UHGV virus genome: UHGV-0073881
From: a virus
Strand: one strand, 5' to 3'
DNA: 64,000 nucleotides
Part shown: positions 5,538-30,495 of the stretch, one piece after another
Layout of the letters: every line of letters begins with the position of its first letter
Numbering within the stretch: position 1 is the first letter of the stretch
The notes under the pieces: model-generated
Database searches by the model: none
The model's input: the letters and a program-made list of their open reading frames with translations, nothing else
Told to the model about the DNA's origin: nothing
Translations under genes and position numbers: made by a program

Positions 5538-7100
5538 ACGTCTATGTAATAGCCCCTCTCAAATGCTTATATAAACCCTTCCCCTGTCCTTTCCAGAATC
5601 TTACAAGACCTTAAAAAGCAATAACTCTATAGCTTACTCTATAACCTCTTATCAAATCAACTTAAATATAAGCCCATAACCCGAAAGGGAAGGGCAATCC
5701 CTTAAACGCTCTATAACGCTCTATAACGGCTTATCAACTCAACTTAACCAATCATATTAACCCACTCTTAAAAGCCCTCTATAGAGCTTCATAGACCCTT
5801 AAAAGAATCTTATAAGGGGTGTAAGCTTTATCATCTCGTTAGTATCTTGTGAATAGTTAAACAGGGGGCTTGTTATTAGCTTAAAAGTATGTTATAGGGG
5901 CTTAAAAGTAGCTATAAAGTTACGTAAAAGTATCGTAAATGCTAGCCCCCTTAACATTTCTTTAACAATTTCTTAACAATCCCTACATAGTTATGCTTAT
6001 TAGAGACTTGTTAGCACCTTGTTAAATCTCTGTTAAGACTATGTTACAACCTTGTTAGATTCTTTGGAGTCCCTATATAAGCCCCTGTAAAGGGCTATAA
6101 AGAGCTATACAGTCAGTTGGGCTATAGTTACTATGGAGAACCTTAGAAATGGCTGTATAGAGCTATACAGGGCTTTTAAGAGGGCTTTTAAGAGAATCAC
6201 TGAGAAAGATAGGGAACTATAGACCAAGAGATAGTGACATGTTAACAGCTTGTTAAAAAGGTTAAACACTTGTTAGGAACTTGTTAATAATCTTAACAAA
6301 ATAACTCTTAACATTTAACTACTCAACTCTTGTTAGCAATCTGTTAAGACTCTGTAAAGACTATGCAACAACTGTTAAGCACTTGTTACAATCTTGTTAG
6401 CTCTGTTAAGGGTCTATTAAGAACTCTGAAGAGATGTTAAGAGGATGTAGTAACTGTTAAGAAATTGTTAATGATATTTTAAGATTTTGCAAAGGGTATG
6501 TTACAGGGATGTTAAGGGCTACCAAGCAGATATACACCCTAGACAGATATTTTTCAGTTCCTTCAAAGAACCTAAATAAAACACTTGACAGTCTATTTTA
6601 TAAAAATTTTATAGAACTGAATAACTATCTATACACTATCTAGTATAAAACAGGTAATAACAGGCTTATAAGATACCTTGTTAGTACCGTGTTAGACCTT
6701 GTAGGATAAGCCTTAGAAGGGAATACCTGTTTAGTGCTATATAACAGTCTATATAGAGGCTTAGTAAACCCTAGTGAACCATCTATAGAGAGTCACATAG
6801 TTAACATAGAGATTAAGATGGGTATAGGAGCTTCTAAGGGGTTGTTAAGATGTTAGGAAGGGGGTTGTATAGGTGGTTAAGAAGGCTTGTTAGAGAGCTT
6901 GTTAGAGGGCTATTTAGAAGGGGCTATACAGTTCACTATATCGAATCACTAGAAAGAGACTAAGAGGCTATATAGATACTATATAATACTATATAGAGAG
7001 TATGCTTAGATAGGTTGTTTAGAAGGGCTAGATATTTTATCACATATCATGGTGACCCAAGATGAACGTAGTGAATCCAAATTTTATAAAATTATAAATT
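5538..7100. repeat. ORF-free repeat-dense region (short TTGTTA / CTGTTAAG / CTTGTTAG and CTATACAG / CTATATAG repeats)
   Basis: no ORF of 60 aa or more on either strand; dozens of short direct and palindromic repeats, densest 5930-6480 and 6650-7000. Confidence 0.6.
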
Positions 7101-7728: not shown

Positions 7729-8235
7729 CTAGAATTTTAGGTTGCATTCTTTACTCACTTCTTCAAATTTCTGTTCATGTTCCAAGGCTTTCTTCCTGTG
7801 GAACCTCATTCTTAAGTAGGCTGCAATCATACCACCTACAGGAAGCACATACAAGAACCAAATTTCTTCGATTTTGTTTATTGACTGCTTAATAGTCATT
7901 TCTTGACCGTAAAAAGCTGTTATAGCCACTGCACAGACCATGATAAAGAACATTGCCAAGAATACAATCATTCCTGCATAGGCTCTTACGTGCTGTTCTG
8001 ATAAAGTCTGCTTGTTCTTTGCATCAATCAGTCCGTTGTAGTCATTTGAAAAGTCCCTGTAGAAAGCTTTCAAGTATTCTCGGCTATAACCTTCAAAACA
8101 ACCTGTGCCAAACCAATCATCCCCTCCAAAGTGGGAAATTACACCCGTTTCACCGTTTGCTTTAACAATCTTGATAGAAACATGGTGCTTAGATTTTGTA
8201 TGGGAAATCTGGTCTCTTTCTTCTAACATAATCAT
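7729..8235 (-). CDS. hypothetical membrane protein (168 aa)
   Basis: ORF track; ATG start; two hydrophobic segments in C-terminal half. Confidence 0.6.
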   Translation of the reverse strand: MIMLEERDQISHTKSKHHVSIKIVKANGETGVISHFGGDDWFGTGCFEGYSREYLKAFYRDFSNDYNGLIDAKNKQTLSEQHVRAYAGMIVFLAMFFIMVCAVAITAFYGQEMTIKQSINKIEEIWFLYVLPVGGMIAAYLRMRFHRKKALEHEQKFEEVSKECNLKF

Positions 8236-8453
8236 TGTTTAATCCTCTCTAAACGTGCATTCCACTCAATGTCAATCATTTTCTTAAAAGTTTTTCCCCT
8301 TGGGGTTACATTTGGAATGCCTTCATCTGCTGTGCAATAGAGAATATCCCCTCTTGCTGCTTTACCGTAGCACTGTTTGATTTTCTTGGCTCTCCTGTAT
8401 GACTCTGCTGCTGCAATCATCCAGTACTCACCTAAAGTTGTAAACTTTTTCAT
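8232..8453 (-). CDS. hypothetical protein (73 aa)
   Basis: ORF track; overlapping start-stop with neighbours. Confidence 0.5.
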   Translation of the reverse strand: MKKFTTLGEYWMIAAAESYRRAKKIKQCYGKAARGDILYCTADEGIPNVTPRGKTFKKMIDIEWNARLERIKQ

Positions 8454-9151
8454 TCGTTCACCATTGCGTTGTAAAACTGTCTTTGAATTTCTTCAGCAAT
8501 TTGATGAGGTGTCAAACCAGCTTTCAGCATCATTCTCACGGTGTATTCAATATTTCCGTGGTTTACTACTCTGTCAGCGATAAAGGCAGCCTCTTTAAAC
8601 TCTTCAGCTTTCTTCTTAGCGTCTTCACATGCCCCTGTCAAGAGGGAAGAAAACTTTTTATGTGGTGGTAACCAATGATGGTGTGGATTGTTGGAAGTAA
8701 ATGCTTTGAAGAACTCTCCAACATGGTCAACAACTCTTGAATCTCCACCTTTTACATTCAGTTCTGTGGTGTAACGGTTTTCATGCTTTGGTAAATCTTC
8801 AATCTGAAGAATCTTATGAGTAGGCTCAATAGTCACGTCTACAGAACGAATCTTTGGAGTTGTCTGAGATTCTTCGTGACGAATGAACAGAATGTCTTTA
8901 AACTGCCCTGTGAACTGACCACTTGAGTACTCATCAGTAGAGTAGATGATACCTGCGTGTAACACTCCGAGAGTACCTTGTGGGTTATGTCGATAATCTT
9001 TAAACATCAGTTTCTTAAGTGGTCTGAAAAAGATACGCCCAGATTCTGCTACGTGCGTAATCTCAGCCTGAGTAGAATCTTGACCATTGTAACGGTTTCC
9101 TAAAGAAACCTGAATAGTAATCTTGTCACCAGCTTTTGGTTTAGTGTTCAT
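8450..9151 (-). CDS. hypothetical protein (about 233 aa)
   Basis: ORF track 8450-9166; start moved to ATG with GAGGA RBS (MNTKPK). Confidence 0.6.
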   Translation of the reverse strand: MNTKPKAGDKITIQVSLGNRYNGQDSTQAEITHVAESGRIFFRPLKKLMFKDYRHNPQGTLGVLHAGIIYSTDEYSSGQFTGQFKDILFIRHEESQTTPKIRSVDVTIEPTHKILQIEDLPKHENRYTTELNVKGGDSRVVDHVGEFFKAFTSNNPHHHWLPPHKKFSSLLTGACEDAKKKAEEFKEAAFIADRVVNHGNIEYTVRMMLKAGLTPHQIAEEIQRQFYNAMVNE

Positions 9152-14454: not shown

Positions 14455-15870
14455 ATGAGCGAATTATTTGACCACTCAAACCTTCATCAAGGTCGTACTG
14501 AAAATGGTGCTGTAAACCACACCTCTTCAATGTCAGCCTCGGTAGACTTCTACAAAGCTGCTGGCTCTAGCCGCAACTACGTAGAGAAACTTCCAAATCT
14601 TTTCTACAAAGCTTTACGGGAAGATATTGATGTTGCTGTACGAATCCTGCTTCATATGCGAGATGCACGAGAAGGTATGGGTGAGCGTAAAGCGTTCAGA
14701 ACTGTTTTGACTGAATCCATCAAAAGCAACATCCTAGACTCTTTCCAAGTTCTACGTATCATGGAAAAGATTTCTGAACTAGGCCGTTATGATGACTTTA
14801 AAATCTTCGTAGGTACTCGATACGAAACAGATGCTTTCAAACAACTTGAAGCAGCACTGTTAGACCCTAACACTGCACAGTTAGCTGCAAAGTGGTTGCC
14901 AAGGGTTAAGCGTCGTCATATGAACTTTGTAAACCGCTTCTGTAAGTTTGCAAAGCTAAGTCAGAAAGAGTACCGACTGTTACTGTCAGCCTTGTCTGAT
15001 ACGGTTGAGCAGAAGATTTCTGCAAATGCTTTTGGAGAGATTGATTACAGTAAAATCCCTTCACTGGCTGCTGCACGTTACCAGAAGCTTTTCGGTCGTA
15101 AAGATGGTGAGCGTTACAAAGCATACATTGAAGCTCTTACTAAAGGTGAGACCAAGATTAATGCTGGTGCAGTTTACCCATACGATGTGATTAAGTCAGT
15201 AAATTACGGAAACGCTACAGTTGCCAATGAACAATGGAAAGCTTTATCAAACTGGATGGCAGATGGTGAAAACATTCTCTGCATGACAGACGTATCAAGC
15301 TCTATGACTTGGGAAAGACACGGTGCAGTTACTGCTTTAGATATTGGTATGTCTCTTGCATTATACGTCGCAGAACGCAACACAGGTTGTTTTAAAGATG
15401 AGTTAATGGTTTACTCCAGCAGACCTCACTTTATTACACTGAGTGGAGATTTAGCACAACGTAAGCGTCAGGTAATGTCTCATGTTGAGTATGGTTCAAC
15501 TAACCTTCAAGCAGCATTTGACAGAATTCTTGAAATTGGTGTTAAAAATGGCTTGACACAAGAAGCTATGCCAAGTAAGCTTATTATCTTCTCTGATATG
15601 GAATTCAATCAGGTTGATGGTGCAAATGGTCTTACTAACTTTGAAGCAATTCAGAGTAAGTACAAAAAAGCTGGATATGAGATGCCACAACTGGTATTCT
15701 GGTACTTAGCTGACCGTAACGGTAATTGCGAAGTATCTGTAAAGGATAACGGAGTAGCAATGGTTTCAGGTTTCTCTCCAGCCACCTTAAAAGCTTTGCT
15801 TGGTGGTGAGAAGTTTGACCCTATCAGCGTAATGCTCAAAGCAGTAATGATTGAACGCTACGATTGGTAA
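14455..15870 (+). CDS. vWA-domain protein with Ro60/TROVE-like architecture (471 aa)
   Basis: C-terminal vWA with MIDAS motif DVSSSM, GSTN and IIFSDMEF segments; order and spacing resemble the Ro60 C-terminal half; N-terminal 270 aa helical domain unassigned. Confidence 0.7.
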   Translation: MSELFDHSNLHQGRTENGAVNHTSSMSASVDFYKAAGSSRNYVEKLPNLFYKALREDIDVAVRILLHMRDAREGMGERKAFRTVLTESIKSNILDSFQVLRIMEKISELGRYDDFKIFVGTRYETDAFKQLEAALLDPNTAQLAAKWLPRVKRRHMNFVNRFCKFAKLSQKEYRLLLSALSDTVEQKISANAFGEIDYSKIPSLAAARYQKLFGRKDGERYKAYIEALTKGETKINAGAVYPYDVIKSVNYGNATVANEQWKALSNWMADGENILCMTDVSSSMTWERHGAVTALDIGMSLALYVAERNTGCFKDELMVYSSRPHFITLSGDLAQRKRQVMSHVEYGSTNLQAAFDRILEIGVKNGLTQEAMPSKLIIFSDMEFNQVDGANGLTNFEAIQSKYKKAGYEMPQLVFWYLADRNGNCEVSVKDNGVAMVSGFSPATLKALLGGEKFDPISVMLKAVMIERYDW

Positions 15871-15978: not shown

Positions 15979-16008
15979 TTGACAAACACTAAAAAATAGT
16001 GTTATAGT
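15979..16008 (+). promoter_or_regulatory. sigma70-like promoter upstream of tRNA array (TTGACA-N17-TTATAG)
   Basis: -35 TTGACA 15979-15984, -10 TTATAGT at 16002-16008, about 28 nt before first tRNA. Confidence 0.5.
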
Positions 16009-16035: not shown

Positions 16036-16112
16036 CTCTGTTTAGCTCAGTTTGGTAGAGCGTTCCGTTTGGGGCGGTAAGGCCAGAGGTTCAAGTCCTC
16101 TAACAGAGACCA
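16036..16112 (+). tRNA. tRNA-Pro (anticodon TGG), isotype tentative
   Basis: acceptor CTCTGTT/AACAGAG, D-stem GCTC/GAGC, T-arm AGAGG-TTCAAGT-CCTCT, anticodon loop TTTGGGG, CCA encoded. Confidence 0.7.
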
Positions 16113-16119
16113 AATTAAT

Positions 16120-16194
16120 GTCGTAGAAGGCAAATGGTTAGCCACCTGACCTTCAATCAGTTGCTCGCGGGTTCGAATCCCGTCTACGACTCCA
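16120..16194 (+). tRNA. tRNA, anticodon TTC (Glu?), isotype uncertain
   Basis: acceptor GTCGTAG/CTACGAC, T-arm GCGGG-TTCGAAT-CCCGT, CCA encoded; anticodon loop CCTTCAA has C at position 33. Confidence 0.6.
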
Positions 16195-16200
16195 AATTTG

Positions 16201-16269
16201 ACAGAAGACCAAATACAGCAAACAACTTTTACTTTTCGCGCATAGAAAACATAAAAAGCTTGGTCTGGT
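16201..16269 (+). repeat. tRNA-array spacer module A (ACAGAAGACC ... ACAGCAA ... GGTCTGGT)
   Basis: conserved 5-prime ACAGAAGACC and 3-prime GGTCTGGT ends with AT-rich core; 4 copies in array. Confidence 0.6.
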
Positions 16270-16279
16270 CATTAAGAAT

Positions 16280-16356
16280 TGCGGGTATAGAGAAAGGGCG
16301 TCTCACATGTCTCATTAGCATGGTATCGGTAGGTTCGACTCCTGCACCCGCCTCCA
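16280..16356 (+). tRNA. tRNA-Met-like (anticodon CAT)
   Basis: acceptor TGCGGGT/ACCCGCC (1:72 mismatch), T-arm GTAGG-TTCGACT-CCTGC, loop CTCATTA, CCA encoded; weak D-stem. Confidence 0.6.
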
Positions 16357-16361
16357 AATTT

Positions 16362-16425
16362 ACAGAAGACCGTTTACAGCAATTCAAACAATTTTATCGG
16401 AAAATTAAAATGAATACGGTCTGGT
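16362..16425 (+). repeat. tRNA-array spacer module B
   Basis: ACAGAAGACCGTTTACAGCAA ... ACGGTCTGGT. Confidence 0.6.
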
Positions 16426-16437
16426 AATGTTAAACAT

Positions 16438-16514
16438 GGTTAGGAAGCACATAAGGCATGTGCGGTCGGCTGTTAACCGAATGGCACAGGGTTCGAATCC
16501 CTGACTAACCGCCA
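16438..16514 (+). tRNA. tRNA-Asn (anticodon GTT)
   Basis: acceptor GGTTAGG/ACTAACC, D-stem GCAC/GTGC, T-arm CAGGG-TTCGAAT-CCCTG, loop CTGTTAA, CCA encoded. Confidence 0.75.
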
Positions 16515-16524
16515 AAATTTAAAT

Positions 16525-16612
16525 GCGTCGTTATCCCGTAGATGGAAGCGGTGGTGACTGTAAATCACTTGTCATTACGACTCGGTAGGTTCGACTCCTT
16601 CACGGCGCACCA
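16525..16612 (+). tRNA. tRNA-Tyr (anticodon GTA), class II with long variable arm
   Basis: 88 nt; acceptor GCGTCGT/ACGGCGC, anticodon stem GGTGA/TCACT loop CTGTAAA, T-loop TTCGACT, CCA encoded. Confidence 0.7.
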
Positions 16613-16618
16613 AATAAA

Positions 16619-16696
16619 GGTTATGTAGTTTAATCTGGTTAAAATACCTCCCTGTCACGGAGGAAGATGTGGGTTCGAATCCCATCGTAACCGCCA
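16619..16696 (+). tRNA. tRNA-Asp (anticodon GTC)
   Basis: acceptor GGTTATG/CGTAACC, anticodon stem CCTCC/GGAGG loop CTGTCAC, T-arm GTGGG-TTCGAAT-CCCAT, CCA encoded. Confidence 0.75.
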
Positions 16697-16754
16697 ATTT
16701 TGAGAAGGGCTTTTTAGCCCCTCCCTTAAAGAGTTCTTGCGAGTATTCTTTAAA

Positions 16755-16835
16755 GGAGCAGAAGACCAAATTCAGCAAGCAACAAAAATATTTCAAGCCA
16801 ATTAATTTGAAAAATTTAAAACTTGGTCTGGTTCC
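16755..16835 (+). repeat. tRNA-array spacer module C
   Basis: GCAGAAGACCAAATTCAGCAA ... CTTGGTCTGGT. Confidence 0.55.
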
Positions 16836-16844
16836 AACAAATTT

Positions 16845-16969
16845 ACAGAAGACCGTTTACAGCAAGTTAAACAATCTAATTCTCTATGAAAGAAAGGGCG
16901 AAGGTTCGATTCCTTCACACGTTACGGCGTGTTGGTGTAATGGCAGCACTTAAGATGATACGGTCTGGT
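16845..16969 (+). repeat. tRNA-array spacer module D, carrying a tRNA-like T-arm and acceptor-like hairpin
   Basis: ACAGAAGACCGTTTACAGCAA ... GAAGG-TTCGATT-CCTTC (16900-16916), ACACG-TTACGG-CGTGT hairpin (16917-16932) ... ACGGTCTGGT; no full cloverleaf. Confidence 0.55.
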
Positions 16970-17118
16970 AATCCTCTTTGCAGTGACTTATGGAGCTAAT
17001 ATATCGTCCCATGAGTGCCGATGAATCTCTTGAGCATGATTCTAGATTAGCTTACTAAGAGATGACTCTACAAACCCTTTAGCAAGGTTTGCGTAGGTTA
17101 CTGCAAAGATGATTTAAT

Positions 17119-17194
17119 GGAAGTGTAGCAGAATGGTGATGCGGCAGACTTTTAATCTGACAGGCGATGGGTTCGAATCCCTCCACTTCTACCA
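17119..17194 (+). tRNA. tRNA-Lys (anticodon TTT)
   Basis: acceptor GGAAGTG/CACTTCT, anticodon loop CTTTTAA, T-loop TTCGAAT, CCA encoded. Confidence 0.7.
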
Positions 17195-17279
17195 AATTCG
17201 CCCTTAATTGAAGAATACCTACTTCGCGGCTGGAAACACCCACGAAAAATCAATTCTTCTCCAAAGGGCAACTTATTAC

Positions 17280-17356
17280 GGTTCAGTCGCAGATAAGGTA
17301 ATGCAAGGGTTTCATAAGCCCTATGAATGTGGGTTCGACTCCCATCTGAACCTCCA
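17280..17356 (+). tRNA. tRNA with anticodon CAT (Met or Ile2)
   Basis: acceptor GGTTCAG/CTGAACC, anticodon stem AGGGT/GCCCT loop TTCATAA, T-arm GTGGG-TTCGACT-CCCAT, CCA encoded. Confidence 0.75.
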
Positions 17357-17358
17357 AT

Positions 17359-17433
17359 TGTGGGTTAGCATAAATGGTAATGCAAACGGCTGATAACCGT
17401 TAGAAGAGGGTTCGATACCCTCACCTACAACCA
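17359..17433 (+). tRNA. tRNA-Ile (anticodon GAT)
   Basis: acceptor TGTGGGT/ACCTACA, D-stem GCA/TGC, anticodon stem AACGG/CCGTT loop CTGATAA, T-arm GAGGG-TTCGATA-CCCTC, CCA encoded. Confidence 0.75.
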
Positions 17434-17448
17434 ATTCCAATAAAGTTG

Positions 17449-17477
17449 TTGACATTAACATGTGACCACTTTATAGT
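17449..17477 (+). promoter_or_regulatory. strong sigma70-like promoter inside tRNA array (TTGACA-N17-TATAGT)
   Basis: -35 TTGACA 17449-17454, 17-nt spacer, -10 TATAGT 17472-17477; followed by about 320 nt with no ORF and no canonical tRNA. Confidence 0.55.
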
Positions 17478-17801
17478 AACTAAAATACTTCATAATATGT
17501 ATAATTCAAACACCAATACATGAGCGTTAGACGTAACACAATGTGGGGAAATTTGTTGTACATATTCTGAATAGTTTTCGTTAGTGTAGCGTCTATTTTG
17601 CAAACTTAAAAATAAATGCAAACGATAATGTTTTTCTGGCAGTAGCTTAATAGGCTAAACACCAGTGAGGTCTTCCAATCCCTCATCAAAGAATTTGGCG
17701 TACTAGCCCACGGTATGATTAATAAAGTGGGCGACATTCTAAAGGGTATCCCTTATGGGGCTTGGCTTAAATGCAATGAGTACCCTTTAAAATGTTAATT
17801 A

Positions 17802-17883
17802 CGGGGCGTATCTCAGCGGTCTTCTAAACCGCCGTTAACCGAGTAAGTGGAGTATGCGGGTTCGAGTCCTGCCGCCTCGACCA
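17802..17883 (+). tRNA. atypical tRNA-like gene (Arg TCT-like anticodon arm), possible pseudogene
   Basis: acceptor CGGGGCG/CGCCTCG, T-arm GCGGG-TTCGAGT-CCTGC, CCA encoded; stem GCGGT/ACCGC with loop CTTCTAA but no canonical D-arm and a 23-nt segment before the T-arm. Confidence 0.4.
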
Positions 17884-17898
17884 ATTTTGGATGAAATC

Positions 17899-18246
17899 AT
17901 GAAGACTTGTATTAGGTGCAAACTTAGCAAGGATGAAAATGATTTCTACATGAAAGATGGTAGGAGAACTCATTCATACTGTAAAAAGTGTGTTAATGAG
18001 CAAACCATAGAAAGACAAAGAGCACTTAAACTTTCAGCTGTTGAGTACAAAGGTGGGGTTTGTCATGATTGTGGTAAAAGGTATCATCCAGCAGTGTATG
18101 ACTTCCATCATTTGAATCCTTCAGAGAAAGATTTTAACATTGGTCATAGAAAAAGTCTTAAGTTCTCTCAGGAGCTAAAGAACGAACTTGACAAATGTGT
18201 TTTGCTATGTTCAAATTGCCATAGGGTAAGACATGCAAAGTATTAG
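17899..18246 (+). CDS. HNH endonuclease (zinc-finger plus HNH) embedded in tRNA array
   Basis: CxxC...CxxC and FHHLNPSEKD...LLCSNCHRVRH motifs; ORF track 17854 start lies inside the tRNA, so start moved to ATG 17899. Confidence 0.8.
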   Translation: MKTCIRCKLSKDENDFYMKDGRRTHSYCKKCVNEQTIERQRALKLSAVEYKGGVCHDCGKRYHPAVYDFHHLNPSEKDFNIGHRKSLKFSQELKNELDKCVLLCSNCHRVRHAKY

Positions 18247-18383
18247 TTAGCAGATTGCTTAGACGACCTTAACGGGTCTCCTGTAAGGAGGTGGTCTGTA
18301 TCTCATGTTTCCAGAGCATGTAAAAATATTCTGAGAAGGGGCTTTACAGTGTTGTGATAATACGGTAAGCTTCGAATTATAAT

Positions 18384-18466
18384 ATGGGACGATGTTAAGA
18401 CTCTAAGGCATGAGCAACGGCTTCCAACACCGTTTCAAAGGGGTTCAACTCCTCCGTCCCATGCCA
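18384..18466 (+). tRNA. tRNA, possibly Trp (anticodon CCA); atypical
   Basis: acceptor ATGGGAC/GTCCCAT, T-loop TTCAACT, CCA encoded; stem AACGG/CCGTT around TTCCAAC; extra nucleotides between acceptor and D region. Confidence 0.45.
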
Positions 18467-18478
18467 AAGTCTTATTAG

Positions 18479-18567
18479 GGGTAGGTAGCGGCTAATGGTA
18501 GCCAAACTGTCTTGAAAACAGTTGCCACTGTAGAGATACGGTGAGGGTTCGACTCCTTTACTTACCG
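18479..18567 (+). tRNA. tRNA-Ser (anticodon TGA), class II
   Basis: acceptor GGTAGGT/ACTTACC, D-stem GGC/GCC, anticodon stem ACTGT/ACAGT loop CTTGAAA, long variable arm, T-loop TTCGACT; CCA not encoded. Confidence 0.7.
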
Positions 18568-18817
18568 CCTAATAAGATTTAAAGCCGCGCTTCGTTCGGA
18601 TGTTGCGTTAGGTTTCACTTCGTGTATTGTCGTACACGATGTTGAGAAAGCACCTAGTAGGTGTCACGGAGAAGAGATAGCATCAAGCTCTCCAAAGGTT
18701 CTAGTCACCGGATTAAACAAGACTATGCAAAGACTGATTAGGTCTTTTTAGATAACTTCTGAGGCAAACTATACCATTGTTGCTTTGGGTCTTGGAAGTT
18801 CTCTACAAAGATTTAAT

Positions 18818-18894
18818 GCACCTATAGCCCAATTGGAAGAGGCAGCAGACTTAGAATCTGTTCAGTGTGAGTTCGACTCTCTCTAGGTGTACCA
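18818..18894 (+). tRNA. tRNA with anticodon TAG (Leu-type anticodon, class I length)
   Basis: acceptor GCACCTA/TAGGTGT, D-arm CCCAATTGGAAGAGG, anticodon stem GCAGA/TCTGT loop CTTAGAA, T-loop TTCGACT, CCA encoded. Confidence 0.6.
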
Positions 18895-18901
18895 AATTAA
18901 T

Positions 18902-18977
18902 GCAGGTGTAGCAAAATGGTTATGCGGCTGACTCTTAATCAGTAAGACGATGGGTTCAATTCCCTCCACCTGTACCA
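18902..18977 (+). tRNA. tRNA with anticodon CTT (Lys?)
   Basis: acceptor GCAGGTG/CACCTGT, anticodon stem GCTGA/TCAGT loop CTCTTAA, T-loop TTCAATT, CCA encoded. Confidence 0.6.
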
Positions 18978-18983
18978 AACATT

Positions 18984-19059
18984 GGGGATGTAGTTTACAT
19001 GGTTAAAACATAAGTTTTGCAAACTTAAGTACAGGGTTCAATTCCATGCTTCTCCACCA
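18984..19059 (+). tRNA. tRNA-Ala (anticodon TGC)
   Basis: acceptor GGGGATG/CTTCTCC with G3:U70 identity pair, anticodon stem TAAGT/ACTTA loop TTTGCAA, T-loop TTCAATT, CCA encoded. Confidence 0.75.
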
Positions 19060-19065
19060 ATTAGT

Positions 19066-19140
19066 GCATCCATAGTTTAAACGGGAAAATTACAGTCTTC
19101 CAAACTGAGGTTGAGGGTTCGATTCCCTCTGGATGCTCCA
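19066..19140 (+). tRNA. tRNA-Gly (anticodon TCC)
   Basis: acceptor GCATCCA/TGGATGC, T-arm GAGGG-TTCGATT-CCCTC, anticodon loop CTTCCAA, CCA encoded. Confidence 0.75.
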
Positions 19141-19146
19141 ATTCAT

Positions 19147-19222
19147 GCTCCTATCGTATAACTGGCTATTACGGTTGTCTTGTAAGCAACTTATCAGGGT
19201 TCGAATCCTTGTGGGAGCACCA
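19147..19222 (+). tRNA. tRNA-Thr (anticodon TGT)
   Basis: acceptor GCTCCTA/TGGGAGC, D-stem CGTA/TACG, anticodon stem GTTGT/GCAAC loop CTTGTAA, T-arm CAGGG-TTCGAAT-CCTTG, CCA encoded. Confidence 0.7.
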
Positions 19223-19316
19223 ATTTGAGGTCAAGTGAAAGACCGCTTGAGTCAACTGAAGACCGTAACAAATTCCACGGAGTTGAGTTAGCGGCACAAC
19301 TTCAGACCTCTTTAAA

Positions 19317-19391
19317 GCTCGCTTAGTTTATATGGTAAAGCCCCATCCTTACAAGTTGGTGAAGAAGGTTCAAGTCCTTCAGCGAGTACCA
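19317..19391 (+). tRNA. tRNA-Val (anticodon TAC)
   Basis: acceptor GCTCGCT/AGCGAGT, T-arm GAAGG-TTCAAGT-CCTTC, anticodon loop CTTACAA, CCA encoded. Confidence 0.7.
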
Positions 19392-19392
19392 A

Positions 19393-19470
19393 GTTCCAGT
19401 ATCCCAATTGGCAGAGGATGCAAGCTCAAACCTTGTATTAGTGACGGTTCGAATCCGTCTTGGAACACCA
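19393..19470 (+). tRNA. tRNA with anticodon CAA (Leu-type anticodon, class I length)
   Basis: acceptor GTTCCAG/TTGGAAC, D-stem ATCC/GGAT with loop CAATTGGCAGA, anticodon stem GCAAG/CTTGT loop CTCAAAC, T-arm GACGG-TTCGAAT-CCGTC, CCA encoded. Confidence 0.65.
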
Positions 19471-19487
19471 AATTTTAGGAGATTCCT

Positions 19488-19700
19488 ATGAAGCCTTATG
19501 GTAGACACGGTAAAGTTGAAATTGCAAGTTGTGGTTGCTGTGCTTCTCACGATGGTGAAGAAGATTACTACAAGTGGCGTACAGACCATCGTAGACGCTT
19601 TCTCAGAAGAGATAAGAAGAAAGCTAGACAGGAATCTCGAAAAGATATTGCAGAATTAGTTCAAATGGATAGAGCAGCAACCTACGAAGTTGTTAGTTAG
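19488..19700 (+). CDS. hypothetical small basic protein (70 aa); 3-prime end overlaps tRNA-Arg
   Basis: ORF track; RBS AGGAG 7 nt before ATG; last 50 nt overlap the tRNA at 19650. Confidence 0.35.
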   Translation: MKPYGRHGKVEIASCGCCASHDGEEDYYKWRTDHRRRFLRRDKKKARQESRKDIAELVQMDRAATYEVVS

Positions 19701-19723
19701 GGGTTCGAATCCCTTATTCTGCA
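19650..19723 (+). tRNA. tRNA-Arg (anticodon ACG)
   Basis: acceptor GCAGAAT/ATTCTGC, D-stem GTTC/GAGC, anticodon stem GCAAC/GTTGT loop CTACGAA, T-arm AGGGG-TTCGAAT-CCCTT; CCA not encoded. Confidence 0.75.
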
Positions 19724-19744
19724 CAAATTTTAGAAGGTAATTAT

Positions 19745-19972
19745 ATGCGTAAACTCATTATTGAAAGGCATAAAGATGCTGACAAGATTGAAACAACACA
19801 AGTTGGGGACACTGACTTCATTCTTGTAGGTTGGAAATGTGACCCAATAGCAGCTATGAAGGTTGTTCATGGTTTTGCAGGAATTGAATTTAATCAAATC
19901 ATATTTGAAACGCTATTACCAGAAAATCAGGATACGTGTAATAACGCATATATCCTGACAAGAGTTCGTTAG
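19745..19972 (+). CDS. hypothetical protein (75 aa) between tRNA genes
   Basis: ORF track; ATG start; stop abuts tRNA-Gln. Confidence 0.4.
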   Translation: MRKLIIERHKDADKIETTQVGDTDFILVGWKCDPIAAMKVVHGFAGIEFNQIIFETLLPENQDTCNNAYILTRVR

Positions 19973-20046
19973 GGGATTAGTTTACAAGGTTAAAACCTCG
20001 GTCTTTGAAATCGAAGAAGTTGGTTCAATTCCAACATCCCCCGCCA
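19971..20046 (+). tRNA. tRNA-Gln (anticodon TTG)
   Basis: acceptor AGGGGAT/ATCCCCC (1:72 mismatch), anticodon stem TCGGT/ATCGA loop CTTTGAA, T-arm GTTGG-TTCAATT-CCAAC, CCA encoded. Confidence 0.7.
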
Positions 20047-20048
20047 AT

Positions 20049-20127
20049 GCTCCATTACTCCAATTGGCAGAGAGGCCAGACTTAAAATCTGTGTTATGTA
20101 TCGGTTCGAATCCGATATGGAGTACCA
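20049..20127 (+). tRNA. tRNA with anticodon TAA (Leu-type anticodon, class I length)
   Basis: acceptor GCTCCAT/ATGGAGT, D-arm CCAATTGGCAGAG, anticodon loop CTTAAAA, T-arm ATCGG-TTCGAAT-CCGAT, CCA encoded. Confidence 0.65.
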
Positions 20128-20133
20128 AATATT

Positions 20134-20209
20134 AGCAGTGTAGCATAACTGGCAATGCTCCAGCCTCTGAAGCTGAAAGATTAAGGTTCAAATCCTTACA
20201 CTGCTGCCA
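20134..20209 (+). tRNA. tRNA with anticodon CTG (Gln)
   Basis: acceptor AGCAGTG/CACTGCT, D-stem GCAT/ATGC, anticodon loop CTCTGAA, T-arm TTAAG-GTTCAAAT-CCTTA, CCA encoded. Confidence 0.65.
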
Positions 20210-20240
20210 CTTCTAAGGGTTCTTACGAGAGTCCTTAAAT

Positions 20241-20317
20241 GTGGCCTTATCATAAATGGATAATGACCCATGCTGTGAACATGGTCTATACGGGTTCGAT
20301 TCCCGTAGGTCACCCCA
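20241..20317 (+). tRNA. tRNA-His (anticodon GTG)
   Basis: acceptor GTGGCCT/AGGTCAC with C73, D-stem TCAT/ATGA, anticodon stem CCATG/CATGG loop CTGTGAA, T-arm ACGGG-TTCGATT-CCCGT, CCA encoded. Confidence 0.75.
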
Positions 20318-20324
20318 ATTTTAA

Positions 20325-20401
20325 TAGCTCAATTAGCTTATATGGTTAAAGCGCGTGTCTGAAAAACATGAGAACAGGGTTCAAATCCCGATGGGCTACC
20401 A
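20325..20401 (+). tRNA. tRNA-Phe (anticodon GAA), irregular acceptor/D junction
   Basis: anticodon stem CGTGT/ACATG loop CTGAAAA, D-stem GCTT/AAGC, acceptor TAGCTCA/TGGGCTA, T-loop TTCAAAT, CCA at 20399-20401. Confidence 0.6.
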
Positions 20402-20417
20402 ACTTTATAGGTGCATA

Positions 20418-21152
20418 ATGAAAGAGATGACAGGACAAGGTAAAGAGATTTTCAATCTCCTTAAATCCGGTAACGGGTTCTCTAACCCTCTTATTACTGG
20501 TGCAGCAGTTCTTGGTGGTACAGTTGCTGCTTCTCAGTCATTAATCACTTCAATTAGTTCTGTATCAGACCCAGCTACCCAGCAAATCCTTATTGCTGCT
20601 GGCTTGACAACTGCCTTACTAAGCAGCTTTACAACAAGCCTTGGTAGCACCACTTCAACGACAACTACTTTAACTGACTATGGACAGAAGTCTGTAGATG
20701 AGTTTTCACAGCGTATGCAGGTAGCCAAAGGATACTCTAATGTTATGGGAGCAGCGGGTGAACAAGTTGGATGTACACCGTTTAGTGGAATCATGGGAGT
20801 TGCTACTGAATACGGTAACAAGGCTATGGATTTGATTAACACCTCCATAGATGCCGTAAACAGCGTTCTAAGCGACTTACAGGATGCAATTGATAAAGGA
20901 CTAGCAACCATCTCTGACCTCGCTACACAAGCTGTTACAGCGATTAATGAAGGTATGGCAAAGATTACTGCCTACGCTAATGAAGTGGCTCAGATGATTG
21001 CAGACGAAGCAGCAATGATTGCAGAGTATCTAAAAACCAATATTAATGGTTTCCTTGCAAATGTTTTACCAGATTGGTTTAACGATGATTGTAAGACGGG
21101 TGTAATTGATACAATTGCAACTCCAGAGATGAAAGAAGCTCTAAACAAATAA
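20418..21152 (+). CDS. hypothetical Ala/Ser/Thr-rich protein embedded in tRNA operon (about 244 aa)
   Basis: ORF track 20355-21152; start moved to first ATG after tRNA-Phe (MKEMTGQ) with AGGTG RBS. Confidence 0.6.
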   Translation: MKEMTGQGKEIFNLLKSGNGFSNPLITGAAVLGGTVAASQSLITSISSVSDPATQQILIAAGLTTALLSSFTTSLGSTTSTTTTLTDYGQKSVDEFSQRMQVAKGYSNVMGAAGEQVGCTPFSGIMGVATEYGNKAMDLINTSIDAVNSVLSDLQDAIDKGLATISDLATQAVTAINEGMAKITAYANEVAQMIADEAAMIAEYLKTNINGFLANVLPDWFNDDCKTGVIDTIATPEMKEALNK

Positions 21153-21155
21153 TTT

Positions 21156-21248
21156 GGAAGATTAACCCTAAAAGGTAAGGGAGCAGTTTGCTAAACTGCC
21201 AGTAGCTGAGAAATTGGTGTACCAGTTCAAGTCTGGTATCTTCCTCCA
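21156..21248 (+). tRNA. tRNA-Ser (anticodon GCT), class II
   Basis: 93 nt; acceptor GGAAGAT/ATCTTCC, D-stem CCC/GGG, anticodon stem GCAGT/ACTGC loop TTGCTAA, long variable arm, T-arm ACCAG-TTCAAGT-CTGGT, CCA encoded. Confidence 0.75.
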
Positions 21249-21254
21249 AATTTT

Positions 21255-21330
21255 GCATTGGTGTCAGAAATGGATATGTACCTGTCTGCAAAACAGGTTT
21301 ATGAGGGTTCGAGTCCCTTCCAATGCTCCA
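21255..21330 (+). tRNA. tRNA-Cys (anticodon GCA)
   Basis: acceptor GCATTGG/CCAATGC, anticodon stem CCTGT/ACAGG loop CTGCAAA, T-arm GAGGG-TTCGAGT-CCCTT, CCA encoded. Confidence 0.8.
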
Positions 21331-21364: not shown

Positions 21365-21426
21365 GCCCTGCTATGAGTATTCTCCCTTTCGCTACCGGAG
21401 AGTATTTTTAGACAGGGCTTTTTTAT
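21365..21426 (+). terminator. terminator-like nested hairpin after tRNA array
   Basis: outer stem GCCCTG...CAGGGC followed by TTTTTTAT; inner CTCC/GGAG hairpin; large loop. Confidence 0.4.
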
Positions 21427-21490: not shown

Positions 21491-21515
21491 GACGGTCTCT
21501 GCGCCGTCTTTTTTC
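21491..21515 (+). terminator. rho-independent terminator
   Basis: stem GACGG/CCGTC, loop TCTCTGCG, then TTTTTTC. Confidence 0.6.
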
Positions 21516-21753: not shown

Positions 21754-21774
21754 TTCTATTTGCAGAGGTGCTTA

Positions 21775-23376
21775 ATGGATTTAAATGCTATTAAGCAGAA
21801 GCGAGTGGAAGATGTAAGGAAAGTCCTAGCTGGAGAGTTGGGGCTTTCTGAAGAAGTAAAAGAAATTATCAAATCATTTGGTAAAGACCCGTCTAAATTC
21901 CTTCCTACTCAGATTCTGACTTTATTAAGATATTCACCAGACCAAGTAAGACTCATCTTTAAATTGATGACTGACAAGAACTACGTAGCTCCACAGCCTG
22001 GGTCTCAGGAAGTATTCTTGAACACTAATGCTGACTTGGTGCTATATGGTGGTGCTGCTGGTGCTGGTAAAACGGCTGCCCTTTTAATGGACTCATTACG
22101 ATTCATTGAAGACCCTAACTATAATGCTGTATATTTCCGTCGAAATACTACGCAGCTACAAGGGGGTTTATGGCCTGCTGCTAAAAAGCTATTTGGTAAG
22201 TTTGGTGGTACTCCACACGAACAGAAAATGACTATTACATTCCCTTCAGGAGCTACTATTAAGTTTACTTACTTGGAACTTGAAAAACACTCAGAAGGTC
22301 ACCAAGGGATTGAATACTCTGCTATCTACTTTGACGAAGGTACACACTTCTCAGCTTCACAGATTTCATATCTGCAAACACGTTTACGTTCTGGTGCTGA
22401 AGGTGACTCATACATGAAGATTTCTATGAACCCTGATAGAGACCACTTCATCTATGATTGGGTAGAACCTTTCCTTGATGAAGACGGTTATCCAGACCCT
22501 GACAAGTGCGGTAGAATTCGTTGGTATGTTATGAATGATGGTGTGATGGTTTCTGATTGGGACAGAGATAAGATTCTCGAAATGTTTCCTCTTGAGATTC
22601 CTCAAACATATACCTTCATTTCTGGTACAATTGATGATAACCCAATCCTTGACTTCTTGGAGCCTAAGTATCGTGGTAAGCTTGAAAACAACACTCCAGT
22701 TAACGTAGCAAGACTTCGTTTTGGTAACTGGAAAGCTCGTGCTGAAGGTTCTAACTATTGGCAAAGGCAATGGTGTGAGATTGTTGACAGTGTTCCACCA
22801 GATATCTTTGATGTTCGAGCATGGGACTTAGCGGCTACTTTACCATCTGAAGTCAACCCTAACCCTGACTGGACAGCGGGTGTCAGAATGGCTAAATCTA
22901 AAAAAGATGGTTGCTATTATGTCATGAACGTAGTAAGATTTAGGGATAGACCTTCTGGAGTCGAGACACAAATTAACTTGACTGCTGAAAGCGACGGTAA
23001 GCGCACAGGTATTTTTATCCCTCAAGACCCCGGCGCTGCTGGTAAATCCTACGCAACATCCCTTATCAGAAAGCTTGCTGAGAAAGGCTACAGAGCAAGA
23101 GCAAAACCAACAAACAAAGATAAAGTCACCCGTTTTGCGGGTTTCTCTGCTGCTTCTGAAGCAGGATTGGTTAAGATTGTCAGAGGTAGCTGGAACGAAG
23201 CTTACTTCCAAGAACTAGAAGGTTTTTGTGGAGATGGTAAGACCAAGGATGACCAAGTGGATGCTACAAGTGATGCTTTCAACAGTCTCAATGAGGTAAA
23301 ACTGTTTAAGCCACCTTCAATGGGAACTCACACAGATTTAGTGAGAAATAACCCTTATGAGGGACTTAGACGCTAA
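21775..23376 (+). CDS. terminase large subunit
   Basis: Walker A LYGGAAGAGKTAAL and Walker B-like IYFDEGTHF; start moved from TTG 21760 to ATG 21775 with GAGGTG RBS; heads the morphogenesis module. Confidence 0.85.
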   Translation: MDLNAIKQKRVEDVRKVLAGELGLSEEVKEIIKSFGKDPSKFLPTQILTLLRYSPDQVRLIFKLMTDKNYVAPQPGSQEVFLNTNADLVLYGGAAGAGKTAALLMDSLRFIEDPNYNAVYFRRNTTQLQGGLWPAAKKLFGKFGGTPHEQKMTITFPSGATIKFTYLELEKHSEGHQGIEYSAIYFDEGTHFSASQISYLQTRLRSGAEGDSYMKISMNPDRDHFIYDWVEPFLDEDGYPDPDKCGRIRWYVMNDGVMVSDWDRDKILEMFPLEIPQTYTFISGTIDDNPILDFLEPKYRGKLENNTPVNVARLRFGNWKARAEGSNYWQRQWCEIVDSVPPDIFDVRAWDLAATLPSEVNPNPDWTAGVRMAKSKKDGCYYVMNVVRFRDRPSGVETQINLTAESDGKRTGIFIPQDPGAAGKSYATSLIRKLAEKGYRARAKPTNKDKVTRFAGFSAASEAGLVKIVRGSWNEAYFQELEGFCGDGKTKDDQVDATSDAFNSLNEVKLFKPPSMGTHTDLVRNNPYEGLRR

Positions 23377-29041: not shown

Positions 29042-29523
29042 TGGTAAAAAGGGTTATTCACCCCGCTAGAGCTAAATTAGTCGGGGCTATGAAGAACTTG
29101 CAAACGGCTAATGCTCAAGTTGGGTATTTTCAAGAACAAGGTCAACATAGCTCTGGTTTTTCTTATCCTGCTTTAATGTACTTACACGAAGTTATAGGGG
29201 TTCCCTCAGCTTCTGGTAAGGTTTATCGTAGGCTGTTTGAAATCACTATGATGCTACACAAACAGACCTTGTTAGAGCAGACTAAGAAGAATCTCTATAA
29301 GCAACTAAACAGTCTTACTGTAGACCCTTCAAATACCTTGGAAGCATTCGCAAAGAGTGCTCAAGGGGCAATTAAAAGAGGTTTTGGTAATACTGCTATC
29401 CTTCCTCCTAACGCACCTTCCACAGTAGCTAAAAAAGGTTTTAACGCTCCACTTGTGGAAACAGGTGACTTAAGAGAAAACCTTGCTTATAAAATTTCTA
29501 CTAAAAAGGGCATTAAGAAATGA
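29041..29523 (+). CDS. hypothetical head completion/neck protein (160 aa)
   Basis: ORF track; overlapping start-stop. Confidence 0.5.
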   Translation: MVKRVIHPARAKLVGAMKNLQTANAQVGYFQEQGQHSSGFSYPALMYLHEVIGVPSASGKVYRRLFEITMMLHKQTLLEQTKKNLYKQLNSLTVDPSNTLEAFAKSAQGAIKRGFGNTAILPPNAPSTVAKKGFNAPLVETGDLRENLAYKISTKKGIKK

Positions 29524-29921
29524 GACTCTTAAACAGACACAGCTTTGTAGTTAAACGCAAAGTATCTGAAGACGGCTATTACAATAACGATGGTGATTGG
29601 ATTGCTTCTCAAGATATTGTTGAGGTAAACTGCAAAGGTAATATTCAACCTTATATTAAGGGTTCTGTAAAGAATGGTACACAGATTGTTTTACCTGAAG
29701 GTATCAGACTGACAGATACAAGAATCCTTTTCACTGTAGCTGAGTTAAGAACGTCAGATGACGTTGATTGGACTGAGGCTGATATTGTTATGATTAAAGG
29801 ACACGAATACGAAGTCTTTATGACAATGGATTGGTCAGAACAGTTAGCTCACACATCCCATTATGAATATATCATCATTAGAAGGGATAAGATGAATGCA
29901 GTTAGAAACAGCAGAACTTGA
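29520..29921 (+). CDS. hypothetical neck/tail completion protein (133 aa)
   Basis: ORF track; 4-nt overlap. Confidence 0.5.
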   Translation: MRLLNRHSFVVKRKVSEDGYYNNDGDWIASQDIVEVNCKGNIQPYIKGSVKNGTQIVLPEGIRLTDTRILFTVAELRTSDDVDWTEADIVMIKGHEYEVFMTMDWSEQLAHTSHYEYIIIRRDKMNAVRNSRT

Positions 29922-30495
29922 GAAAGGGATTGTCAGAACTTTGGTTGATGTTATTGGTCACCGTCTAGCACGAGATAAGAATAACAGACCAAACGTTATC
30001 AGGGCATACCCATCTGACAACTCAAATGATAAAGGTCTAAAACCTGACCAGCCATTTATTACAGTTTACTGTCAAGATGCTACAACGCCTTATGGGTGGG
30101 TACTTGATAAATTCGTGGAAGATGATGTAGTTTGTTATAGAATTGCTTTTCAGATTCCAGTGTTAATTACTGTGAATGGTAAAGGTGCTCATAGTATTAT
30201 GCTAGAGCTAAAACAGAGATTAGAGATGAGTTCCACAAGGGATTTATTAGCTGAGGAAACAGGAGCATCTGTTCTTGATACCGGAGCTATCCCAAATGAT
30301 TACACTTATCTTAATACAGACTTTGAAAATTCTGCACCTCTTGTTGTAACACTCGTAAAAAATTCAGTATTAAAAGATGAACGTGGAAGTATTATTGAAC
30401 GTGTCATTGTTGATGGTGAGTTAGTTTATGAGGAAGGACAGGAGCCACCAGAATATACTATCCATCTAGATGTAGACTCCAAAGGGGTAAAATAA
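29896..30495 (+). CDS. hypothetical neck/tail completion protein (199 aa)
   Basis: ORF track. Confidence 0.5.
   Translation: MQLETAELEKGIVRTLVDVIGHRLARDKNNRPNVIRAYPSDNSNDKGLKPDQPFITVYCQDATTPYGWVLDKFVEDDVVCYRIAFQIPVLITVNGKGAHSIMLELKQRLEMSSTRDLLAEETGASVLDTGAIPNDYTYLNTDFENSAPLVVTLVKNSVLKDERGSIIERVIVDGELVYEEGQEPPEYTIHLDVDSKGVK

Follow-up and report, generated by a model that had tools for sequence, protein, structure and literature searches.

A conserved DUF7217 gene within the tRNA array of a Felix O1-like phage: probable co-transcription with the tRNAs and a possible low-copy virion product

How a protein-coding gene lodged between two tRNA genes comes to be expressed, and what its product does for the phage, are the questions raised by an open reading frame in the window analyzed here, a 64,000-nucleotide stretch of the virus genome UHGV-0073881. 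Compared by blastn, the region has matches in 557 phage records, of which the best is E. coli phage pEC-M719-6WT.1 (98.5% DNA identity), followed by Shigella and Citrobacter Mooglevirus phages (~89-93%) and also by Felixounavirus phages; on the strength of these matches, the window belongs to a Felix O1-like myovirus (Ounavirinae). The whole array comprises 23 tRNA genes on the + strand at 16036-21330 according to ARAGORN, with which Rfam agrees while adding a 24th at 16120-16191, and the large terminase gene (21760-23376) lies just 3' of it. A first-pass annotation, made from the sequence alone, had reported a 244-aa ORF of unknown function embedded between tRNA-Phe and tRNA-Ser of this array, rich in Ala, Ser and Thr, with hydrophobic N-terminal segments and probably co-transcribed with the tRNAs. 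Its placement of the ORF proved exact to the nucleotide, and the composition it described is borne out by the protein (Ala 12.3%, Thr 11.1%, Gly 8.6% and Ser 8.6%). A longer version of the ORF with a GTG start at 20355 was rejected, as it would overlap tRNA-Phe and is unused in curated relatives. The features of the locus are as follows.

15979-16008, + strand: sigma70-like promoter ahead of the array, from a consensus scan
16036-20401, + strand: upstream part of the tRNA array, with 21 ARAGORN tRNAs and the Rfam-only tRNA at 16120-16191
17449-17477, + strand: putative sigma70-like promoter inside the array, TTGACA-17-TATAGT, a consensus match only
18354-18383, + strand: closest promoter-like site 5' of the ORF, GTGATA-18-TATAAT, from a consensus scan
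20326-20401, + strand: tRNA-Phe(GAA) with an encoded CCA end, directly upstream of the ORF
20402-20417, + strand: 16-nt leader, predicted to be unstructured, with the Shine-Dalgarno sequence AGGTG at 20409-20413
20418-21152, + strand: DUF7217 gene of 244 aa, ATG at 20418 and TAA at 21150-21152, ortholog of Felix O1 ORF49/gp49 and Sf14 gp26
20772-20774, + strand: codon of Cys119, the first of a co-varying cysteine pair
21090-21092, + strand: codon of Cys225, the second of the pair, in the motif LPxWxxDxC
21156-21248, + strand: tRNA-Ser(GCT), beginning 3 nt past the ORF stop (ARAGORN, Rfam)
21255-21330, + strand: tRNA-Cys(GCA), the final gene of the unit (ARAGORN, Rfam)
21365-21424, + strand: strong intrinsic-terminator-like hairpin (21365-21418) followed by U6, region z-score -6.1
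21491-21514, + strand: second terminator-like hairpin with a T6 run, preceding a small ORF and the large terminase gene

The ORF at 20418-21152 is a real gene under strong constraint and a member of the DUF7217 (Felix O1 gp49) family. The profile search that the first-pass annotation had proposed returned Pfam DUF7217 (PF23854) at E = 8.4e-84, with 281.4 bits against a cut-off of 29, in a match that spans residues 8-242 of the protein and positions 2-237 of the 238-position model; phrog_2114 was matched at E = 3.8e-107. The hallmarks of the family are all present in the protein, namely the N-terminal FxLLxxGxxFxNPL, the central YG...ExxxR and the C-terminal LPxWxxDxC motifs together with the paired cysteines. 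The dN/dS of the gene is 0.065 against Michonne and 0.107 against Felix O1, and the nucleotide differences fall mostly in the third codon position (13/6/79 by position against Michonne and 38/21/110 against Felix O1). Homologues were detected by tblastn in 581 phage records that form two blocks, the Ounavirinae at 40-99% identity and the Ackermannviridae at ~27-31%, and an exhaustive profile search yielded 72 clusters at 50% identity, nearly all of them with members of 220-300 aa. The gene is universal in these two phage families, and it is already known: it is ORF49 of the Felix O1 genome paper, it has its Pfam family, and it is annotated in hundreds of genomes. Because the Felix O1 ortholog is ORF49/gp49 (29271-30005, 244 aa, pI 4.3), the record of the gene goes back to the deposition of the Felix O1 sequence and its description in 2010. 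Felix O1 gp49 (NP_944879), Sf14 gp26 and Michonne gp86 are the same gene, each of 244 aa and with 80-92% protein identity, located, as here, after tRNA-Phe and before tRNA-Ser/Cys and the terminase, with the same 16-nt leader in front; no substantive difference separates them from the window gene. What varies is the label, since the records conflict in calling the protein 'hypothetical' (as does that of VpaE1), 'putative membrane protein', 'GTP-binding domain', 'structural protein' or 'Red protein'. The 'GTP-binding domain' label, attached to phrog_289 and to some Klebsiella phage records, probably stems from Salmonella phage 38, in which the gene call is a fused one of 475 aa.

That this real gene is expressed along with the tRNAs is, in our judgment, very likely. 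Between 18383 and 21409, a consensus scan of the + strand turned up no sigma70-like site, and we saw no convincing terminator in the array before 21365. The spacers around the ORF measure only 31, 8, 16 and 3 nt, and thus leave no room for a promoter there. Between the flanking tRNAs and the ORF, neither a promoter nor a terminator interrupts these tiny spacers, which is the pattern that an mRNA linked to tRNAs should display. The putative promoter at 17449-17477 matches, in motif and in relative position, the promoter P45 of the Felix O1 authors, and the annotation of Michonne has a terminator at the place that corresponds to the hairpin at 21365-21424. The leader and the start region of the ORF are predicted to be unstructured, which would leave the ribosome-binding site open. 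The junction itself, consisting of a tRNA CCA end, 16-17 nt, AGGT(G), 4-6 nt and the ATG, spans four genera, being found in Felix O1, Michonne, Roscha1 and Arno162, though in the last of these, a Pectobacterium phage, the upstream tRNA-like end is not called by ARAGORN. The identity of the flanking tRNAs varies: in the Erwinia phage Roscha1 tRNA-Ser(GCT) precedes the gene, in the others it follows it, and the tRNAs 3' of the gene number two, one or none depending on the phage. Judged from the genome sequences, the constant of the subfamily is that this is the last protein gene of the tRNA array, followed by the small ORF, the large terminase and the portal gene.

Co-transcription of the ORF with the tRNAs is probably the most economical reading of this arrangement. 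The first-pass annotation had thought it probable, and it fits both the span free of promoters and terminators and the conserved tRNA-ATG junction; read as it is from the DNA, it keeps that grade of probability. A transcript of Felix O1 ORF49 has been detected by RT-PCR (Felix O1 paper), but we did not use the timing table of that study as a guide to when the gene is expressed, because its '5 min' class places ORF49 together with the major capsid protein gp58 and the baseplate protein gp71. A search for Felixounavirus transcriptomes found none. In the mechanism we propose, the gene would have no promoter of its own: transcription would start at sigma70-type promoters that lie within the array or before it and would take in the gene as part of the tRNA polycistron, and the transcription unit would close at the terminator past tRNA-Cys. 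The enzymes that mature the tRNAs on either side would then free the mRNA, or at any rate define its limits. Maturation of tRNA precursors, by 3' processing and by RNase P, provides the general basis for its proposed ends: 3' processing of tRNA-Phe would set the 5' end 16 nt ahead of the ATG and RNase P cleavage at tRNA-Ser would set the 3' end 3 nt past the stop, so that the message would carry a 16-nt leader and a 3-nt trailer. Protein genes are co-transcribed with tRNAs in the E. coli thrU-tyrU-glyT-thrT-tufB operon and in the 'tRNA punctuation' of mitochondria. The window locus resembles both in having few bases between the coding sequence and the tRNAs, although its processing is proposed from the sequence. 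It is not a new kind of element, as protein genes in phage tRNA clusters are familiar and tRNA-mRNA co-transcription is classical.

The more distant members of the family are arranged differently. LIMEstone1 ORF129, Sajous1 gp166 and moki gp39 of the Ackermannviridae belong to the same Pfam family and share the length, the motifs and the cysteine pair of the window protein at ~30% identity; unlike the window gene, however, the Ackermannviridae genes lie outside any tRNA array and stand alone, with a TAAATA hairpin at the start and a terminator at the 3' end. The Sajous1 'gp214-217 ferritin operon', which we also considered as the DUF7217 locus, consists of different genes, the family member being gp166. 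A conserved hairpin, AAAUACCCCC...GGGGGUAUUU with a U-run, precedes the start codon in 10 of 10 Ackermannviridae loci from several genera, its 3' arm and U-run abutting the ATG. Its free energy ranges from -11 to -20 kcal/mol, and three of the four that were folded are far more stable than their shuffles. In all ten loci the 5' arm is a TAAATA late-promoter-like box at -29 to -35. Genes e and soc of T4 have a late promoter inside a hairpin, which on read-through transcripts hides the start site. The same geometry appears, from the sequence, in the Ackermannviridae DUF7217 genes and not in the window gene. The annotation by the LIMEstone1 authors has a late promoter at the TAAATA box and a terminator at the hairpin, and the same ACTAAATA box also stands ahead of the prohead core gene. 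A promoter-in-hairpin design of this kind implies that the gene is expressed late and as a unit of its own, as would suit a protein of the particle or of its assembly. The Ackermannviridae gene is located between the capsid genes and a gene for a gp3-type tail completion protein, and it is two genes from UvsY, an exonuclease and UvsW.

The protein itself is acidic, with 25 D/E against 13 K/R, and is rich in Ala, Thr, Gly and Ser. AlphaFold2 gave a poor model with 13 close homologues (pLDDT 63.9) and a confident one only with a family-wide alignment of 29 sequences; in the latter the protein is all-alpha (pLDDT 96.6, pTM 0.87), with long helices at 25-47, 65-112, 127-160 and 165-221. The structure search that had been suggested alongside the profile search could therefore be run on a confident model, and this fold has no significant solved or annotated relative: Foldseek against the whole PDB gave a best E of 0.16, fold searches returned generic helical bundles only, the search of BFVD returned family members with no annotated relative among them, and sequence searches of the PDB with the protein and the 29-sequence profile found nothing specific. 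A new feature that emerged from this analysis is the covariation of a cysteine pair. Both Cys119 and Cys225 are present in 55 of 62 family representatives and both are absent from the remaining 7, with a single cysteine in none, and the sequences that lack the pair belong to at least three separate groups. The simplest reading of this all-or-none pattern suggests a structural disulfide between the two residues, which, judging from the helix lengths of the model, appear to lie in loops at the same end of the predicted bundle. Neither a signal peptide nor a transmembrane helix was found in the protein, and a probable disulfide in a protein that has no export signal would point to a stage of life outside the cell. 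The product would thus be pictured as an acidic, soluble bundle of alpha helices held together by a single conserved pair of cysteines.

Our preferred reading of its role, to which we assign a probability of roughly 0.5, is that of a low-copy virion protein situated outside the ordered lattices of capsid, tail and baseplate; it might be internal, attached to the tail lumen or the portal, or delivered into the cell. We prefer this reading because the late-promoter design, two independent detections in virions, the probable disulfide and the neighborhood of morphogenesis genes outweigh the counter-evidence. Both detections concern distant Ackermannviridae homologues of ~30% identity and involve low counts. 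LIMEstone1 ORF129, which matches DUF7217 at E = 2.6e-93, is annotated as a 'confirmed structural protein' on the evidence of 2 unique peptides, which give a coverage of 18%. Sajous1 gp166, which matches at E = 6.5e-99 and shares 31% identity with the window protein, was represented by 8 spectra in CsCl-purified virions in which the major capsid protein gave 924; this equals the count of the gp3-type tail completion protein (8) and exceeds that of the DNA-end protector (3). As the two datasets also include clear non-structural proteins (rIIB, ligase and PhoH in LIMEstone1, RegB and ParB in Sajous1), these detections are suggestive and fall short of proof. The function that the first-pass annotation had left blank is narrowed to this extent, that homologues of the protein are low-abundance parts of purified virions, while a role within the particle can be put forward only tentatively.

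Among the Ounavirinae themselves, the Felix O1 paper lists Gp49 among the virion proteins on the basis of the peptide-mass fingerprint of a 50.6-kDa band, which the authors discussed as the possible sheath 'by synteny and mass'; however, gp49 has 244 aa in the table of the same paper (~25 kDa) and is missing from its shotgun list, and the sheath-sized protein of Felix O1 is gp63 (48.9 kDa). Given this mismatch in mass, we regard the assignment of the 51-kDa band to gp49 as unreliable; it may reflect a dimer or a slip in labeling. None of the Ounavirinae virion mass-spectrometry tables that we examined shows the DUF7217 protein. The cryo-EM studies of Sf14 and Bas63 modelled or tabulated 22-25 structural proteins, the DUF7217 protein not among them, and no chain in the PDB, where virion models of Bas63 and Sf14 are deposited, matches it by sequence or by fold. 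If the protein is in the particle, it is thus not in an ordered symmetric assembly, and its absence from the virion models may be compatible with an internal or asymmetric component. T4 offers a precedent in gp2 and the internal proteins IPI-III, virion proteins that are low in copy number or stand outside the lattice and that are delivered together with the DNA. The T4 genes ipI and 2 lie between the tRNA cluster and gene 3, and the Ackermannviridae DUF7217 gene, which adjoins a homologue of gene 3, recalls this placement. The likeness to gp2 does not extend to sequence similarity, and the DUF7217 protein has no established capsid-targeting or cleavage signal; N-terminal peptides have been reported for Felix O1 gp49 (Felix O1 paper).

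A different role, which we hold possible but unlikely, is that of a non-structural or injected protein acting on DNA ends or in recombination, for example against RecBCD or as a substitute for lambda Red/Gam; such a role is compatible with delivery by the virion. For the N-terminal portion of the ortholog in Felix O1, both GenBank AF071201 and UniProt O80222 use the name 'red'. In the former, an 11.5-kb Felix O1 fragment, the first 453 nt are annotated as 'red: complements red mutants of bacteriophage Lambda', and a 1-nt indel splits the ORF, the UniProt product being 'Red protein' O80222. The complementation claim is nevertheless a depositor's note on a mis-framed ORF of 150 aa, and the cloned fragment held tRNA genes too: the deposited sequence starts inside the tRNA array, ~170 nt before the ORF, and a complementing clone from that end might therefore also carry tRNA sequence. 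Genomic context speaks for the same role in two lineages. In uncultured phage contigs of ~63-180 kb, family members of 20-23% identity come directly after rIIA-rIIB, 2-10 nt past them, and precede an Rv2179c-like exonuclease and an NAD-dependent ligase, an early or DNA-metabolism neighborhood, and the nearness of the Ackermannviridae gene to UvsY, the exonuclease and UvsW points the same way; against this, gene neighborhoods differ between the lineages. The acidity of the protein might likewise suit a DNA-directed function, but known DNA mimics have a charge density far higher than that of the DUF7217 protein. A further point in its favor is that, as the authors of PhageMaP observe, no RecBCD inhibitor is recognized in Bas63. 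The protein, however, shows no similarity in Pfam to Exo, Beta, Gam, nuclease or annealing families, and YqaJ/Exo, RecT/Redbeta/Erf and Gam are all absent from its Pfam matches at E <= 1. Homology to T4 gp2 was rejected on an hhalign probability of 0.4%, and the analogy is weakened further by the separate gp2 homologue that the Ackermannviridae already carry.

It is quite unlikely, in our view, that the protein is instead a late assembly factor or chaperone of head or tail morphogenesis whose presence in the particles is mere trace co-purification. The gene does adjoin the terminase and portal genes in the Ounavirinae, and in the Ackermannviridae it both sits between the capsid genes and the tail completion gene and has the late-promoter design; the low spectral counts and the absence from the cryo-EM models would also be as expected of a helper. 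An all-or-none cysteine pair is nonetheless hard to explain in a purely cytoplasmic protein, the Sajous1 spectral count is that of a bona fide structural gp3 homologue, and the rIIB-linked context of the uncultured lineage does not fit.

Very improbable is a membrane-active protein that serves lysis timing, superinfection exclusion or an rII-like protection. Many GenBank records label the protein as a putative membrane protein, residues 22-86 contain a single charged residue, and the gene adjoins rIIA/rIIB in one lineage. The hydrophobic N-terminal segments of the first-pass annotation did not hold up, however: the highest 19-residue Kyte-Doolittle mean is 1.49, below the level of ~1.6 usual for a membrane helix, and the nearly uncharged stretch 22-86 is not conserved in the family, being charged in distant members, and is buried in the compact soluble bundle that AlphaFold2 predicts. 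On these grounds, the membrane-protein or holin label was rejected. The weak, sub-threshold matches to Senescence/spartin and apolipoprotein families lend some color to a membrane role, but Senescence (PF06911) scored 21.6 bits, under its cut-off of 24.6, and Apolipoprotein A1/A4/E (PF01442) was a pre-computed match on two homologues only; the resemblance is compositional and reflects amphipathic, Ala-rich helices. A search for defense systems with PADLOC produced nothing beyond a weak match (E = 5.6e-4, 16.7 bits) of coiled-coil type to the tail of ZorA, which was likewise set aside.

That the ORF arose by chance or is a selfish insertion, comparable to the HNH homing-endonuclease genes that make up the other ORFs of the array and vary between phages, is effectively refuted by the Pfam match, the strong purifying selection on the gene, its spread over 581 records and universality in two phage families, the lack of a nuclease domain in its product (Pfam), and the peptides of homologues observed in LIMEstone1 and Sajous1. 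The Felix O1 tRNA array holds several HNH genes as well as ORF48/49, and in T4 segB lies between tRNA-Arg and tRNA-Ile of the tRNA cluster; the window gene is flanked by tRNA genes as segB is, but segB is a homing endonuclease whereas the window gene is a conserved core gene.

The cysteine covariation, the hairpin-promoter of the Ackermannviridae, the rIIB linkage and the 'red' note are leads on function and not results. A bolder picture, which we consider decidedly unlikely as a whole, would combine several of them: a few-copy DUF7217 protein of new fold would be delivered with the DNA and would protect or process the genome ends, and in the Ounavirinae its mRNA would be carved from a tRNA precursor. 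If this were true, protection of genome ends would account for the old report of lambda red rescue by a Felix O1 gene, and the shaping of the DUF7217 mRNA by RNase P and tRNA 3' processing would be a phage version of tRNA punctuation.

Few phages see as much use in typing, biocontrol and therapy as the Ounavirinae (Felix O1, Bas63, Sf14) and the Ackermannviridae (Vi01, CBA120, LIMEstone), and DUF7217 is one of the few genes without an assigned function that the two groups have in common. Our analysis gives grounds to drop the membrane and GTP-binding labels that the family has carried in sequence records, and it revives the complementation of lambda red as a testable genetic lead. The tRNA-flanked gene of the Ounavirinae, in turn, presents a convenient natural case of the making of an mRNA from a phage tRNA precursor.

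A conserved hairpin lies 5' of the DUF7217 genes of Ackermannviridae, with a TAAATA late-promoter-like box forming its 5' arm and with a 3' arm and U-run that touch or contain the ATG. This geometry is like that of the T4 e/soc switch, in which masked read-through transcripts are set against translatable late transcripts. In the same family, a gene encoding a DUF7424 lipoprotein or signal-peptide protein abuts the DUF7217 gene in convergent orientation, and is placed between it and a gp3-type tail completion gene. The features concerned are listed here by comparison locus (L-numbers).

L014, 6960-7003: hairpin before the DUF7217 gene
L015, 6955-7003: hairpin before the DUF7217 gene
L017, 2945-2994: hairpin before the DUF7217 gene
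L012, 5950-6003: hairpin before the DUF7217 gene
L003-L013, 5' of position 6001: hairpin before the DUF7217 gene
L031, 14208-14861, minus strand: DUF7424 lipoprotein/signal-peptide gene
L014, 7730-8383, minus strand: DUF7424 lipoprotein/signal-peptide gene
L017, 3721-4371, minus strand: DUF7424 lipoprotein/signal-peptide gene

Distant members occur on contigs of roughly 63-180 kb from uncultured phages. There the DUF7217 gene begins 2-10 nt after rIIA-rIIB, and genes for an Rv2179c-like exonuclease and an NAD-dependent DNA ligase come next.

L024, L025, L026, L027 and L028, about 8001-8726: DUF7217 gene

One of the contigs additionally carries a gene for an RNA polymerase beta'-like protein that contains an intein.

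In the window, the surroundings of the DUF7217 gene include the following features just before the tRNA array and within it.

14455-15870, plus strand: 471-aa DUF2828 + DUF7788 protein, immediately 5' of the array
16120-16191, plus strand: tRNA-Glu(TTC)-like gene (Rfam tRNA, 53.7 bits)
17802-17880, plus strand: weak tRNA-like match (31.7 bits, barely over the Rfam cut-off)
17854-18246, plus strand: 130-aa ORF inside the array
19488-19700, plus strand: 70-aa ORF sharing about 50 nt with tRNA-Arg (19650-19724)

The 471-aa protein is the counterpart of Felix O1 ORF42 ('RNA-binding protein') and, judged on position and description, Bas63 gp130 appears to be its counterpart in that relative. According to the PhageMaP preprint, Bas63 gp130 is Ro60-like and counters the ppl defence, and some of the 'tRNAs' might be Y-RNA-like partners. 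The tRNA-Glu(TTC)-like gene received no ARAGORN call; its anticodon loop, CCTTCAA, places a C where U33 is near-universal, whereas the tRNA-Glu genes of Michonne and Felix O1 carry a T at this position, and its acceptor stem is likewise diverged. The weak tRNA-like match runs into the start of the 130-aa ORF, for which a Pfam search gave no match, and in relatives HNH endonuclease genes occupy similar positions. The 70-aa ORF may be a spurious call; Michonne and pEC-M719-6WT.1 have the equivalent ORF, whose product is annotated there as hypothetical.

The BFVD entry A0A0N7CDB8 (Salmonella phage 38) is a 475-aa gene call that appears to join DUF7217 to the upstream ORFs. The corresponding ORFs of the related phage moki encode a 'GTP-binding protein' of 143 aa and a product of 84 aa. 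This fused call is probably why the 500-position phrog_289 profile bears the label 'GTP-binding domain', and probably how some Klebsiella phage records came to use that label for plain, unfused DUF7217 proteins. Compared with the complete genome, AF071201.1 (L021), the Felix O1 fragment of 1998, carries a 1-nt indel that splits the Felix O1 gene into 'red' and 'ORF2'.

L021, 171-623 and 746-904: 'red' and 'ORF2' parts of the split gene
L016, 8272-9006: counterpart Felix O1 locus

The 150-aa 'red' product is labelled 'complements red mutants of bacteriophage Lambda', and the truncated 'Red protein' entry persists as UniProt O80222. The text of the Felix O1 genome paper assigned gp49, the ortholog of the window protein, to a 50.6-kDa virion band and considered it a possible sheath, whereas its Supplementary Table 1 gives gp49 as 244 aa with a pI of 4.3; the sheath-sized protein is gp63, at 48.9 kDa (PMC3185647). 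Either the band is an SDS-resistant dimer, or the numbering is wrong, in which case subsequent papers may have taken over the slip.
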